A stretch of 64,000 bases of DNA. Origin: Eledone cirrhosa (taxonomy: Eukaryota). Positions within the stretch are counted from its first letter, which is position 1. Each line of letters starts with the position of its first letter. The notes below the pieces were generated by a model. It was not told the origin of the DNA. It worked only from the letters and a program-made list of their open reading frames with translations, and did not search any database. The stretch lies in NCBI GenBank assembly GCA_964016885.1, contig OZ024746.1, forward strand, positions 77,748,001 through 77,812,000, in the 5' to 3' direction. Positions 24,012 through 36,392 of this stretch are shown one piece after another. The translations under genes and the position numbers were made by a program.

Positions 24012-24014
<3 letters not shown>

Positions 24015-24192
24015 TTTTAATATAGATGAGATTCTTTAGAAATCATCAGGAATCCCCGGAGATTCCTGATGATTTCTAAAGAATGAAACAGTTCTAGTCC
24101 TGTAGAATCTCATCTATATTAAAACTTTTATACTCTGCAATGTATTGAGTACCTTACTTACTGTGGTTACCTCCGATTCAACCCGGAATAAC

Positions 24193-24193
<1 letters not shown>
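24012..24193. mobile_element. Penelope-like inverted pseudo-LTR remnant in (TA)n
   Basis: Left arm 24012-24054 is the reverse complement of the right copy 24061-24127 minus an internal deletion. The right copy has an extra ~66-nt tail and contains a hammerhead. Confidence 0.7.
24059..24111 (+). ncRNA. Type I hammerhead ribozyme
   Basis: GAGATTC-CTGATGA-T(TTC TAAA GAA)T-GAA-ACAG ttctagtc CTGT-A-GAATCTC: 7-bp stem I, conserved core, 4-bp stem III and a GUA cleavage triplet. Confidence 0.75.
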
Positions 24194-24253
<60 letters not shown>

Positions 24254-24257
<4 letters not shown>

Positions 24258-24812
24258 AAAGAATAGAGGTGTAACACACAAGTTATTATATATTGGTAAA
24301 CGGAATAGAAAATGCTGACAAATTGTTCACAGTTGAAAAATGGTTTAATTAGGAATAAAAGAGTATTAGTGATTGTATGGGTTAGTATTCAGTTGTGGTT
24401 TTAAGTTTTTAAGTTTTTACCGGTTGCGTATTTCTAAATGCTTTTCAAAAATAATTTTGAGATAGAGTGTCCGTGCTGTTTGCTCTGATCTGATTAGTTT
24501 TGGGAATTCTACCTGTGTTTATGTTAAAAAAGTGGCTCTAGCGTTATTTTTGTGTTGCAAAAATAACGCTGGAGCCACTTTTTTAACATAAACACAGGTA
24601 GAATTCCCAAAACTTATCAGATCAGAGCAAACAGCACGGACACTCTATCTCAAAATTATTTTTGAAAAGCATTTAGAAATACGCAACCGGTAAAAACTTA
24701 AAAACTTAAAACCACAACTGAATACTAACCCATACAATCACTAATACTCTTTTATTCCTAATTAAACCATTTTCAACTGTGAACAATTTGTCAACATTTT
24801 CTATTCCGTTTA

Positions 24813-24822
<10 letters not shown>
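24254..24822. mobile_element. Near-perfect 266-bp-arm palindrome; probable inverted Penelope-like pseudo-LTR pair
   Basis: 24287-24552 is the reverse complement of 24558-24822 with only a few differences and a 5-nt spacer. The left copy has an extra 34-nt tail, and (TA)n flanks both sides. Confidence 0.7.
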
Positions 24823-24871
<49 letters not shown>

Positions 24872-24877
<6 letters not shown>

Positions 24878-24922
24878 ATACTTTGGGAGGGTCATGTTGC
24901 CAATAACAAATTCAGAAACGAA

Positions 24923-24924
<2 letters not shown>
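24872..24924. mobile_element. 53-bp miniature of the Penelope-like element at 34941-35819 (termini only)
   Basis: ATTGTTATACTTTGGGAGGGTCATGTTGCCAATAA is identical to 35001-35035; AACAAATTCAGAAACGAAAT is the reverse complement of 34941-34960. Confidence 0.85.
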
Positions 24925-24953
<29 letters not shown>

Positions 24954-24964
24954 CATACATACGT

Positions 24965-25312
24965 GGAGGCACATGGCTTAGTGGTTAGAGCACTGGGTTT
25001 GCAATCGAAAGGTTGTGAGTTCAATTCTCAGACCGGGTGATGTGTTGTTTCCTTGAGCAAGACACTTTATTTCACATTGCTCCAGTTTACTCAGCTGTAG
25101 AAATGAGATGATAGGGAAGATGATAGGGACTGGGGTCCCTATCATTCCACTGCAAAGTGGTCGTGGAGGTGCCACGGCAAAAAAGCACCCAGCACTCACT
25201 GTAAATGAGGTTGGTGTTAGGAAGGGCATCCAGCTGTAGAAATCAAGCCAGTATCAGTTCCCGTCCCACCCTTGCAAGCAGGGAAAAGCCGACGTAAAAT
25301 GATGATGATGAT
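24965..25312 (+). mobile_element. SINE family A, full length, with a 12-bp internal duplication
   Basis: High identity to 3260-3602; AGATGATAGGGA is duplicated at 25106-25129. Confidence 0.9.
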
Positions 25313-25357
<45 letters not shown>

Positions 25358-32947: not shown

Positions 32948-33056
32948 AATTGTTTCTACGTTAGGCACAAGGCCAGCAATTACCCAGTGCATTACTGGTA
33001 CTTTATTTTATCGACCCCGTAAGGATGAATGGCAAAGTTAACCTCGGCGGGATTTG
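32948..33056 (-). mobile_element. SINE family C, 3' half
   Basis: Reverse complement of 6070-6182. Confidence 0.75.
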
Positions 33057-33811
33057 ATGATAATAATGATGTATGATAGTAATAATAACCATGATGATAA
33101 TAGTGGGAATAGTAGTAGTAATAATTATAATTATGATGATAATGTTGATGATAACATTAGCCCAAGACCAGCAACTTGGGGGAAAGGAAAGTCTATTATA
33201 TTGACCACAGCACTTTATTCGTACTTTATTTTATTGGCCTTGGAATGATGAAGATCAAAGTCCAACTTGGTGGGATTTGAACCCAGAATGTAGAAAACCA
33301 TAACTAAATATATGTATGGACCTATAACTGAATAGGGGCACTAGCATAACGAACAGTGTGTTTTGGGCATTTTAAACCTTGCAGAGCCTATCCCTCTCCA
33401 GGTCTGAATACAACCAATTACTTTCAGAGAAGGAGAGAAAGAGAGTGTAAGGGCGGAAGTGACAAAGAGATATAGAGGAAGAATCAGTCCCAGTACTAGA
33501 CTGGTACTTTATATGTCAACCTCGAAAGGATGAAAGGCAAAGTTAACCTCAGATGGATTTGAACTCAGAGCACAGAGAACCAGATGAAATGCTGCCAAGT
33601 TTTCTATTCAACGTTCTAACAGCTCTGCCAATTGGCTGCTTCATAACTAAATACTGCGCTGTACTGACACTACCTTATTCTACATGGGAGGGTTTTAGCA
33701 GTGTACGTGTAGTAGTTGTGTGGCATTTGTATGTATGACCTAATGTGTTTGTTAGTCGATGGCAGATATTTTGGCCTTGCTATATTTGACGTAATGTGTA
33801 AGGTAGTTTAA

Positions 33812-34043
33812 CCCTTTAGCATTTAAACTGGCCATATCCGGCCAGAATTCTCTCAGCTCTTTCTGTTCAAACCAGCCATAACTGGCCACTCATACTGACA
33901 TTAAGGTATTATTTTGTTCTCATAATAAATAATATCATCATCCAAATCTCGTAGATTCCATATTATGTGACATAATTATGTAAGATAAAGCCTTTACCAT
34001 GAAAATATAATAGTAAATATAGAGTAATATAAATGCTAAAGGG
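33812..34043. mobile_element. piggyBac-type MITE with TTAA TSD
   Basis: TTAA|CCCTTTAGCATTTA ... TAAATGCTAAAGGG|TTAA: perfect 14-bp TIR; second copy at 54831-55039. Confidence 0.9.
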
Positions 34044-34613
34044 TTAAGCAAAGTGTATGGATAATGTCTTAGCATTATGATTGTTTATATTTGTGTAGCT
34101 TTCACTATTTTCTTGTACATGCAGTTAGGTGTGTGCCAAGTGCTAGCTGTGTCTGTAGAGGTGAGTGGTTTGTGTTTGTGTGTGCACATGCATTTAATAC
34201 TAATTAATAGTTTTATCCTCTGGGGTCGTATATGGGCTTGAGGTTGAGGTAAGTTTTTTATATCCTGTGTTTACATGATGTAACATGTTCGCTCTTTCTA
34301 TTGAGTTCTTGTTTGTTGGCGAACAGTATGTTTATGGTCCCCCTGGAGCAGAGGTTGCACAGAAAGGATCTGCCTTTATACAGTTTTACCTTAGTCAAGA
34401 TACTCCATTGAAACTGGGTGTATTTCATCTTTTCCCCTCAACTATCTCATCACTACATCCCCTTCCTGATTGCCCCCATACCTGGCAATCAAGCTATAAC
34501 CACTCCCTCAAAGAGATACTTTTGAAATAAGATGAATCAGAATCAATTAAATTTTTCATTTGCTATTCAAACTGTAAAAGCTCAACTCTCTGACAGAAAA
34601 TCCTTCTAATACA

Positions 34614-34705
<92 letters not shown>

Positions 34706-34887
34706 AGTAGTATCACAACAGTTAGTTCACCATACCGAGAACAAATGTTTCACCTTGCGAATCTTCAGCTCGGTCTGAGTGTGGTCTTGGTATGGTGAAC
34801 TAACAGTTGTGATACTAATTCTACCAAACTCATCCCATGGACTCAGTGCTCTACTACTATGGATATAACCCTCCAATGTTCTACTAT
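34706..34887. mobile_element. Penelope-like inverted pseudo-LTR remnant in (TA)n
   Basis: 34708-34740 pairs with 34785-34817. The plus-strand copy has a ~70-nt extra tail and the minus-strand copy carries a hammerhead. Confidence 0.7.
34734..34774 (-). ncRNA. Minimal type I hammerhead ribozyme
   Basis: Minus strand ACCGAG-CTGAAGA-T(TC GCAA GG)T-GAA-ACA TT TGT-T-CTCGGT: 6-bp stem I, conserved core, GNRA-capped short stem II and a GUU triplet. Confidence 0.7.
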
Positions 34888-34944
<57 letters not shown>

Positions 34945-35037
34945 CGTTTCTGAATTTGTTTAGCAAGATTCTTTATCTGAAATCGTGTGTTGAAACCGAT
35001 ATTGTTATACTTTGGGAGGGTCATGTTGCCAATAAGA

Positions 35038-35426
35038 CCCTCATGTATAGATAAGAAATGTATAACCTGTAAAATAAGCCCCCATATTAACTGTAAAACT
35101 AGAAATGTAGTGTATAGCATAAGATGTACTGAAGGACAATGTAGAGACAAAAATATAGTGTACATAGGTGAGACAGCTCGTAGTATAGGGAACGGATAAA
35201 TGAACAGTGGCGAGACCTTCAAGATAATAAAGAATCATCTGTACTCTACCAACATGCTAAAATAGAACATAAGGGTAAATTAGAGAACATAGAAATAAAA
35301 ATAGAATCTACACACAGAAAAGACGCAATGTTTAGACAAATTACAGAGGCAATAAACATAAAAGAATTACAACCAAAATTAAATAGAAAATATGAGTGGA
35401 ACAGCAACATCACAACTTACAATTAA
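35038..35426 (+). pseudogene. GIY-YIG endonuclease domain of a Penelope-like element (one frameshift at about 35190)
   Basis: PSCIDKKCITCK..NCKTRNVVYSIRC...C...YIGETARSIG/ERINEQWRD...SVLYQH...H...RQITEAINI...PKLNRKYEW: VVY-YIG motif, catalytic R, E and N residues, and an upstream Cys cluster. Confidence 0.9.
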
Positions 35427-35520
35427 GGACAAAATGAAAACACACACACACATAGAACAAACAACCAACCAGTAACATGTAAATAAACAAATAAATAAAT
35501 GAACATAAACACACACAGTC

Positions 35521-35580
35521 ACCCGGATGTGGCGCATGCGCAGACTGAGCACACAACACACACACAGAAACAAAATGGCG
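35521..35580 (+). promoter_or_regulatory. Candidate pseudo-LTR promoter motif cluster (ETS-like, NRF1-like, YY1-like)
   Basis: CCGGATGT (35523-35530), GCGCATGCGCA (35532-35542) and CAAAATGGCG (35571-35580), just upstream of the hammerhead. Confidence 0.35.
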
Positions 35581-35626
35581 TAGGACAGAACAAAGGAGAG
35601 GCACAGAAACAAAGAAAGGAATCCCC

Positions 35627-35671
35627 AGTCACTGAAGAGGTCACAGAGTGTGTGACGAAAGAACTATGACT
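35627..35671 (+). ncRNA. Minimal type I hammerhead ribozyme in the pseudo-LTR
   Basis: AGTCA-CTGAAGA-G-GTCACA gagtg TGTGAC-GAA-AG AA CT-A-TGACT: stem I AGTCA/TGACT, 6-bp stem II and a very short stem III. Confidence 0.7.
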
Positions 35672-36392
35672 ATATATAAACAACTATCTGGTTGTGGAAC
35701 CAACCAACCAACCAGAAATTTATAAATTTATTATAAATTTATTATAATAAATTGAAGTGAAAGCAACTGGTGCGTGTGTTTCTTATTGGCAACATGACCC
35801 TCCCAAAGTATAACAATATATATATATATATATATATATGAATATATTTTTAAAAAATTTTTTGTTAGAAATTTTATCTTCCTCAGTGAAGGTTTTCTTA
35901 ATTTTCATTTGTTATTAATTAACCATCACCATCCAATTTGTTCATACATATGTATACAAACATAATTATATACACACAATTACATATGCATATACATATA
36001 TATACACACACAGCCATTTAGTGCATTTATTTGAAATTTGGTTTAATAACTCTGTTAATTTATAACCATAACCAGCACTTTAAAAGTCAATAATTGTGTT
36101 TCTTTCCCCAAACCATTTTGTTATTGATAAGGAGGGATGCTGGGTGATACAATAGATGGGTTGCTGAGCTTGCTGTTATTGATACTGTTCTTTTTGTTGT
36201 TGCTATTGCTGTTCTTATAATCAGTATTATTATCAGTATCTTAAGACACCACAGCTGTCTGTTTCTTATTGAATAGTGTTGTATAATAGTCATTTAATTT
36301 CTTTCTGCTCCACACTACATCTGTTGTTCATTATCATCTTATTATTGTTGCTGTTGTTATTGTTGTTATTGTTGTCAGCATTGTTGTTGTTG

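Follow-up and report, generated by a model that had tools for sequence, protein, structure and literature searches.

Six insertions, designated A to F, were found in the window, that is, the whole stretch of 64,000 nucleotides of Eledone cirrhosa DNA that was analysed (GCA_964016885.1, contig OZ024746.1, positions 77,748,001 to 77,812,000). All six lie in (TA)n on both sides where an earlier note on this DNA had placed them, with boundaries that hold within a few TA-ambiguous bases. Their parts are as follows, the hammerheads being predicted from their form:

24013..24193, insertion A: short arm (inverted), a 54-nt palindrome in the centre, then the forward arm, which holds the hammerhead, and a 66-nt tail
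24059..24111, plus strand, A hammerhead, type I, of the form listed for Hydra-clade Penelope-like elements (PLEs)
24128..24193, plus strand, A tail, with a bulged hairpin at its start (24131-24151)
24254..24822, insertion B: 263-nt arms, 3 substitutions and 1 indel apart, 5-nt centre
24254-24286, minus strand, B tail, 33 nt
24872..24924, insertion C: 53-bp miniature of family F, arms without shared element sequence
24872-24906, inverted, C short end, 97-100% identical to the short end of F over 35-39 nt
24905-24924, C tail tip, identical in 20/20 nt to the tail tip of F, the two parts of C having 2 letters in common at their joint
25882..26082, insertion D: arms about 83% alike, a hammerhead relic at best
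26005-26082, D tail, 78 nt, starting with an A-like hairpin (26009-26035)
34706..34887, insertion E: short arm (minus strand) with hammerhead, forward arm with 67-nt tail
34734..34774, minus strand, E hammerhead, Hydra-type type I, predicted cleavage triplet GUU
34821-34887, E tail, 67 nt, in the forward arm
34941-35819, insertion F (extent as in the earlier note; the parts below run from 34942)
34942..35037, minus strand, F inverted arm, the last 39 nt of the element plus a 57-nt tail
35035..35426, plus strand, F GIY-YIG endonuclease, C-terminal, with CX4CxxC linker and CCHH; 5'-truncated, no RT
35627..35671, plus strand, F hammerhead, minimal (min-HHR type), 5-bp stem I, unpaired base 5' of stem II
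35781..35819, plus strand, F short end, followed by (TA)n; this end is shared with C and with 145 contigs of run X1

A short end and a tailed end, facing outward, were present in 6/6 insertions as had been claimed, a pairing shown for these six only, which were selected for inverted shape, while the contigs of public runs were too short to reach both ends of other copies. The earlier view that hairpin-forming insertions are the rule holds for these 6/6, picked for that very shape. Self-inverted scores, each set against the best of 100 shuffles, were 98 versus 38 in A, 977 versus 41 in B, 133 versus 33 in D, 86 versus 34 in E and 70 versus 34 in F. No self-palindrome was found in C, which consists of the inverted short end and the tail tip only. 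When the six insertions were compared in all 15 pairs, only C and F were alike beyond shuffles, thus five families are present, in agreement with the earlier count of at least five unrelated sequences. Counted from the last shared base, the tails are 66 nt in A, 33 nt in B, 57 nt in C/F, 78 nt in D and 67 nt in E; the tails themselves were upheld, but the range of 34-85 nt first given for them included ambiguous TA letters and should read 33-78 nt. The arms overlap in five of the six insertions (A, B, D, E and F) and are non-overlapping in C.

An artefact of assembly or of chimeric reads at TA tracts might be suspected, as no listed contig reaches across a centre with 31 letters to each side. 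However, the arms differ from each other (4 in 263 in B, about 17% in D, a 24-nt gap in A), the same ends are repeated in C and F, and many independent junctions were found in public-run contigs, which leaves this explanation next to no probability. The only N run of the window (27971-28170) touches none of the six insertions.

Alternatively, some or all of the insertions could be DNA transposons that target TA, either MITEs or fold-back elements, in which case the tail would be neighbouring sequence. No open reading frame was found in B, and no coding sequence in the copies of A, D and E; B and D, which carry neither coding nor ribozyme proof, would suit this explanation, and a TA-flanked palindrome at 20678-20758, presumably an ordinary MITE, was counted for it. 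The symmetrical ends that the earlier note had associated with TIR or MITE families were not observed: the ends are asymmetric in 6/6 insertions, and the centres differ among copies of A, B and F in public-run contigs. In addition, F encodes a PLE endonuclease, and in three runs the tail of A matches its body in depth of coverage; since depth drops near TA tracts, it was not used as a frequency. MITEs would thus be a very remote explanation.

The GIY-YIG domain noticed earlier in one insertion was confirmed in F by its relatives and by alignment. The F endonuclease is frameshifted near 35187-35190, and 87 relatives were obtained at E<=0.001 by protein search; P0106 shares 37% identity with F across 71 aa. 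The alignment shows both Cys and both His positions, although the F copy has Gln in place of the first His. The spacer between CxxC and GIY has 7 residues in F and 6-8 in 62 of 63 relatives, and DKSG occurs in 56 of the 80 long F-relative proteins. An RT lies upstream of the endonuclease in 49/49 F relatives holding both motifs, and F itself lost the RT by truncation. The Pfam GIY-YIG model matched 4 of 12 relatives, 2 of them above the cut-off, and no Pfam domain was called on either F piece. Neither longer relatives of F piece 2, in a word-based search, nor a locus for P0008, in a search against metagenomes, was found.

Both Nematis and Neptune are described as having a C-terminal GIY-YIG with CX2-5CxxC linker and CCHH, with DKGG/DKRG in three nematode Nematis. 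The 7-residue spacer of F equals the short Nematis spacing, and C/F is a family with a Nematis-type linker, whereas the relatives of F mostly bear DKSG instead of DKGG/DKRG. Neptune was rejected for F, the linker spacer described there being far longer. The Hydra clade, for which DKT and RWK motifs, a CxCX5C linker and no CCHH are reported (Craig 2021, PMC8557442), was likewise rejected, as F keeps CCHH.

Complete layouts of predicted type I hammerheads were readable in A, E and F, hence in three of the five families; the three cores claimed earlier were borne out in this sense, by form and with no usable call from Rfam. The Rfam scan, which the earlier note had proposed as a check, called no hammerhead over 34700-35830 (E and F) and gave in A only Hammerhead_3, at E = 4; for the whole window, the 150 of 352 matches listed were filled by miRNA models in microsatellites. 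The Hydra-type hammerhead pattern matched twice in the window (A and E), with 0.02 expected. When pairing was required where stem II begins, the descriptor picked up F plus two sites that look like chance (2637 and 25593-25663), but not A and E, in which U stands opposite U at that position. In A, the outer pairs of stem I covary in other copies. No hammerhead was found in B by descriptor search of the window, and no paired stems were seen when a U3-A8 core was looked for by eye in B or D. In D both conserved boxes are altered in both arms, so that no canonical hammerhead was found there and its supposed degenerate core was not confirmed.

The hairpin of the D tail is like that of A, the resembling pattern being fitted after the fact, and no such hairpins were found in the tails of B, E and F. 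Shuffled sequences reached the hairpin of A in 37/300 cases and that of D in 19/300, and no tail folded better than shuffles (z -0.9 to +0.4).

In Hydra-clade hammerheads stem II is flanked by an extra U on either side, nearly all families of the clade insert into (TA)n, and Hydra-1_Obim from Octopus bimaculoides is included (PMC8557442). A and E have the same hammerhead form, both extra U and the start of stem III included, together with the (TA)n target; by ribozyme form they would be Hydra-type, and D is probably Hydra-type as well. The end of the Hydra-2_Amil consensus, read by eye, bears a bulged hairpin like that of A. In other copies of family A, from contigs of run X1, hammerhead units of 78 nt are joined in tandem, which recalls animal non-LTR retrozymes (Li et al. 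2026, bioRxiv 10.64898/2026.07.22.740005; PMC7229834), whereas A in the window is a single unit with a tail. B could be compared with the Naiad clade by absence and layout only, namely no hammerhead, a tail within 30-40 nt and the (TA)n target, and for likeness to Naiad_Obim/Ovul one 14-nt motif of B was sought in the supplement of Craig 2021 (PMC8557442) and not found. Several known clades are involved, not one new system.

The ends and joints recur outside the window. Very abundant families emerge from the public-run contigs. C and F lie 10 kb from each other and have both ends in common, run X1 holds the 145 contigs in which the short end gives way to TA, and in run X4 the summed depth peaks at the F hammerhead and the short end. 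Of the 85 F-family joints in run X1, 15 are listed; 13 of these join head-to-head at other places, and in 3 of the 13 one arm is tail only, as it is in C. Overlaps of 2-5 letters were seen in 11 of these 13, against 17.5% for random joints, and their summed overlap of 32 was attained in 0 of 100,000 random draws, a count that is soft since the shorter side falls below 30 letters in 12 of the 13, and 11 carry the flag 'between: not known'. Other strand-changing or head-to-head joints were also found for families A and B in public-run contigs, and in a second organism a contig ends within 1 base of the short end of A, running into TA. From another organism, raw-read runs X21 and X22 yielded 5 and 0 matching reads, and run X8 gave one contig. 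Within the window, all five families show an inverted 5'-truncated copy with a tail on one end.

We hold it to be about 60% probable that the six insertions are 5'-truncated head-to-head PLE ends in (TA)n, likely two cDNAs joined; this is established for C/F, taken from ribozyme form for A and E, and taken from the layout by itself for B and D. The layout is not new, being the published footprint of EN+ PLEs: an inverted truncated copy at the 5' side, placed head-to-head, with junction palindromes, a one-sided tail, (TA)n targets and a hammerhead in the 3' repeat (Arkhipova 2013, PMC3846280; Craig 2021, PMC8557442). A to F share the inverted 5'-truncated copy, the head-to-head joint, the tail on one end and the (TA)n target. 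Reported tails of 30-40 nt extend the first codons of the ORF (PMC3846280; PMC8557442), and the F frame may do likewise: an ATG-initiated open frame of 27 codons in the inverted arm begins ahead of the short end and reaches the tail tip, with no match to any N-terminus among 237 relative proteins. The present copies differ in having tails of 57-78 nt in four of five families, and in extreme truncation, down to 53 bp with non-overlapping arms. Of the microsatellite-targeting PLE system first proposed, the assignment to PLEs is supported, as are the targeting of TA, the two defined ends and the head-to-head joint, but its being new or single is not.

For two-ended priming we infer a likely order of events, no intermediate having been seen. 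The element's enzyme would nick both strands of the TA tract, and one cDNA would be primed from each nick at the two fixed start sites of the family. A start at the outer site would yield the tailed arm, and a start at the inner site the short arm; the tail would then be the RNA between the two sites, as start sites found in vitro for another PLE suggest. Two cDNAs of the same polarity could not pair lengthwise and would be joined over a few shared letters, as in C, F and other F-family copies; alternatively, one 3' end might fold back and copy itself, which could give the central palindromes of A and B. Overlapping arms (A, B, D, E and F) would need two passes over one RNA stretch, from two RNAs or a tandem transcript, while C could arise from one RNA. 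The hammerheads would be carried passively in the 3' repeat. Two-ended priming with microhomology joining is likely, and was not found stated outright in the accessible PLE literature, where the tail is ascribed to EN-mediated resolution (PMC8557442) and the junction palindromes to self-priming (PMC3846280).

The start sites found in vitro are those of Poseidon from Anolis carolinensis (PAc), in which two RT start sites bound the tail, both strands are nicked and extended in vitro, the RT start is homology-free, targets are AT-rich, the hammerhead is not needed for insertion in vitro and a dimer is predicted (Frangieh 2024, PMC11167929). PAc belongs to another clade; two start sites, extension of both strands and AT-rich targets would be in common, whereas in B, C/F and D the short end shares 4-7 letters with the TA tract. 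In the accessible part of that paper the inverted layout is not derived from two-ended priming (PMC11167929).

A single priming event might suffice if the cDNA folds back or jumps template, with the second end and the tail set by the endonuclease or by resolution through host repair. Fold-back has been proposed in PMC3846280 and PMC8557442 and would agree with the palindromic centres of A (54 nt) and B (loop of 5 nt), and with the A centre, which recurs with a shorter loop in 4 other A-family contigs. C and F, however, could not come from fold-back alone because each arm contains sequence absent from the other; the F-family joints are scattered with short overlaps, and the in vitro start sites match the tail ends with no resolution step (PMC11167929). 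A single priming event is rather unlikely on balance. Another possibility is twin priming in the manner of L1, in which the second TA end anneals by chance to an AU-rich internal stretch and the short end is simply the best TA-like site. Overlaps of the short end with the TA tract (7 letters in B, 4 in C/F, 5 in D) and the non-overlapping arms of C would fit, but the overlap is about 1 letter in A and E, and the arms overlap in the other five insertions. Moreover, a longer TA run lies right behind the F hammerhead (35669-35676), yet in the six X1 rows listed, with 615 more unlisted, no place other than the short end leads into TA, which makes chance annealing improbable.

Going beyond two-ended priming as such, bipolar priming may be an obligatory step of PLE integration, an idea we put forward tentatively. 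Each half of a dimeric RT-endonuclease would start at a different RNA site, every insertion would be short plus tailed across clades with and without hammerheads, the inverted 'pLTR' would be the second cDNA, and C would be the minimal product from one RNA. As a part of this idea, and just as speculative, the inner start site in Hydra-type families might be marked by a small bulged hairpin just behind it.

For the question of how PLEs, which are the sister group of telomerase, finish integration, the value of these families is that of a test set with base-exact ends and high abundance. Counts of short-long pairing, of junction overlap and of arm origin would tell two-ended priming apart from fold-back or from EN resolution. 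In addition, such stumps look like MITEs or like repeats of unknown kind, and their proper annotation is that of PLE ends.

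All six insertions (A to F) reported in the earlier note were confirmed to lie between TA tracts and to carry one short and one tailed end each, both facing outward, with tails of 33-78 bases.

Positions in the window of the six insertions
Insertion A, 24013-24193, between TA tracts
Insertion B, 24254-24822, between TA tracts
Insertion C, 24872-24924, between TA tracts
Insertion D, 25882-26082, between TA tracts
Insertion E, 34706-34887, between TA tracts
Insertion F, 34942-35819, between TA tracts

Self-inversion was far above shuffles in A, B, D, E and F, while C was non-palindromic: the short end of F, inverted, forms its left side, and the F tail tip forms its right side. 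Only C and F were related to each other, so the rule of at least five unrelated sequences held as five families, whose tails measured 66 (A), 33 (B), 57 (C/F), 78 (D) and 67 (E) bases before their own TA tract. The two arms (copies of the element 3' end) of one insertion diverged by substitutions and gaps (in B, whose arms are 263 nt long, by 3 substitutions plus 1 indel), which on sequence comparison argues against an assembly echo; MITE or artefact, taken jointly, would be a very improbable source of A-F.

The GIY-YIG domain said to be kept in one insertion was found in F, where the endonuclease (EN) and its stop were spread over two overlapping frames, and the CX4CxxC linker and CCHH positions were present. 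One extra base existed at the frame break in 17 contigs of the public run X1. With the second frame 87 relatives were retrieved, and among 237 proteins fetched, reverse transcriptase (RT) preceded EN in 49/49 relatives having both motifs. The nearest named relative was an Octopus bimaculoides protein (57% identity over 51 aa), from which an octopod host is probable. The 7-residue spacer of F agreed with Nematis and was unlike that of Neptune; the relatives of F, however, mostly carried DKSG, so any assignment of F to the Nematis clade is tentative. Many ORFs like those of Penelope-like elements (PLEs), of up to 1,200 aa with DKSG, a short linker and CCHH, were seen among P0106 and P0118-P0237, which were mostly unnamed and came from marine data and Octopus. 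A 27-codon ATG-initiated frame in F started before the short end and reached the tail tip, and had no match among the 237 fetched proteins; a comparable frame across short end and tail is described for Pen2a_Av in the accessible part of Arkhipova 2013 (PMC3846280).

Hammerhead cores had been claimed for three insertions, and layouts could be predicted in A, E and F, whereas the Rfam search of the A and E/F regions called none. The predicted hammerhead of F was of the minimal type and left one base unpaired on the 5' side of stem II, a form described for metazoan PLEs in the accessible text of PMC4209133. The predicted hammerheads of A and E fitted the form tabulated for Hydra-clade PLEs in the available part of Craig 2021 (PMC8557442), and a Hydra-form pattern scan of the window gave two matches, A and E alone, with 0.02 expected. 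In other A-family copies the stem I strands covaried (a subfamily in X1, identical contigs in run X4), and tandem 78-nt hammerhead units were observed in X1. The core was absent in B, and the degenerate core assigned to D was not upheld, both conserved boxes being changed in both arms.

A and D had a common hairpin motif just behind the short end, fitted afterwards, so that its chance figure flatters; the one in A is like the terminal hairpin of Hydra-2_Amil. In E, most run depth differed from its own letters at tail positions 34832 and 34844, where the common family letters would, by eye, complete a bulged hairpin like that of A. None was found behind the short ends of B and F, and the case for this hairpin, judged by structure alone, is weak.

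Other copies were sought in contigs of public runs, which were too short for both ends of one copy. E and F were matched by 17,757 contigs in X1, which may come from the source sample, and 597 in X4, with 145 in X1 exiting from the F short end into TA. Among 15 listed of 85 F-family joints, two were set aside, an internal skip and a row on the opposite strand; the other 13 joined inverted to forward arm at other points, three of them starting inside the tail, as C does. An overlap of 2-5 letters occurred in 11/13 of these listed joints versus 17.5% at random, a soft comparison given short sides and unknown spacers. A and B were matched by 10,770 contigs in X1, 449 in X5, 140 in X4 and 1 in X8, and one X4 contig passed into TA within a base of the A short end. 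Among 15 listed of 28 A and B joints, there were strand changes in A and moved centres in B; five of the listed joints, one at depth 916, fell at 24617-24620 in B, which may be either a favoured 5' boundary or part of a palindrome that was amplified in finished form.

Other repeats were also present in the window. A TA-flanked 81-nt palindrome with near-symmetric ends (20649-20758) had no kinship with A-F and resembles a Tc1/mariner-type MITE. A perfect 20-nt hairpin (5547-5590) began at a TA tract and continued into unique sequence, and was not a seventh case because no second TA tract was nearby. GC-rich hairpins just before a TA tract (~745-772, 2400-2426 and 7150-7179; CTAG next in 2/3) look like Helitron 3' ends. 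A 64-nt inverted pair (22256-22319 / 22919-22982, 98%) of a SINE-like 3' end flanked a stretch of ~600 bp containing (CA)70, tRNA-like SINE families were plentiful (24964-25298, 3253-3581, 18476-18802, 20263-20584 and others; copies 89-96% alike), and a minisatellite of ~43 copies of a 31-nt unit occupied 9365-10816.

Across the families of A-F, ends were fixed, polarity was outward and centres varied with short overlaps. With a probability of roughly 0.6, they originated by two-ended priming, early stop and joining in the middle: each target strand would prime one cDNA from a different start site, both cDNAs would stop early, and they would be joined over a few common letters or after fold-back of one. 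In A, a 24-nt fold-back would finish with a 5-6 letter overlap to the short cDNA, which would account for its central palindrome and apparent left-arm gap. In the accessible text of Frangieh 2024 (PMC11167929), a PLE protein for which a dimer is predicted nicks the two strands of AT-rich DNA in vitro and extends each of them; its RT starts at two RNA sites bounding the tail, and the hammerhead is dispensable in vitro. Given C and F, fold-back cannot be the sole route. Single priming followed by fold-back or EN resolution is unlikely, and chance twin priming is more doubtful still. Searches of literature accessible without subscription turned up no text that attributes the inversion to two-ended priming.

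The layout itself has precedents in the accessible parts of published work. Arkhipova 2013 (PMC3846280) describes an inverted pseudo-LTR (pLTR), a tail on one inverted pLTR and palindromes at the junction; Craig 2021 (PMC8557442) gives truncated inverted copies, a 30-40-bp tail often on one end alone, insertion of Naiad and Hydra elements into (TA)n, and tabulated octopus families of both; and a curation guide counts inversion of pLTRs, like short extensions, among the routine features. The available text of an Octopus vulgaris annotation gives Penelope families, and no mention of hammerhead or palindrome was found in it. Departures of A-F from this footprint are modest: tails exceed the published length in four families, one minimal product has arms that do not overlap, and three short ends overlap TA by 4-7 letters. 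The Penelope-like identity given in the earlier note was right, and the layout of A-F is the known footprint of PLEs from several clades, not a new system.
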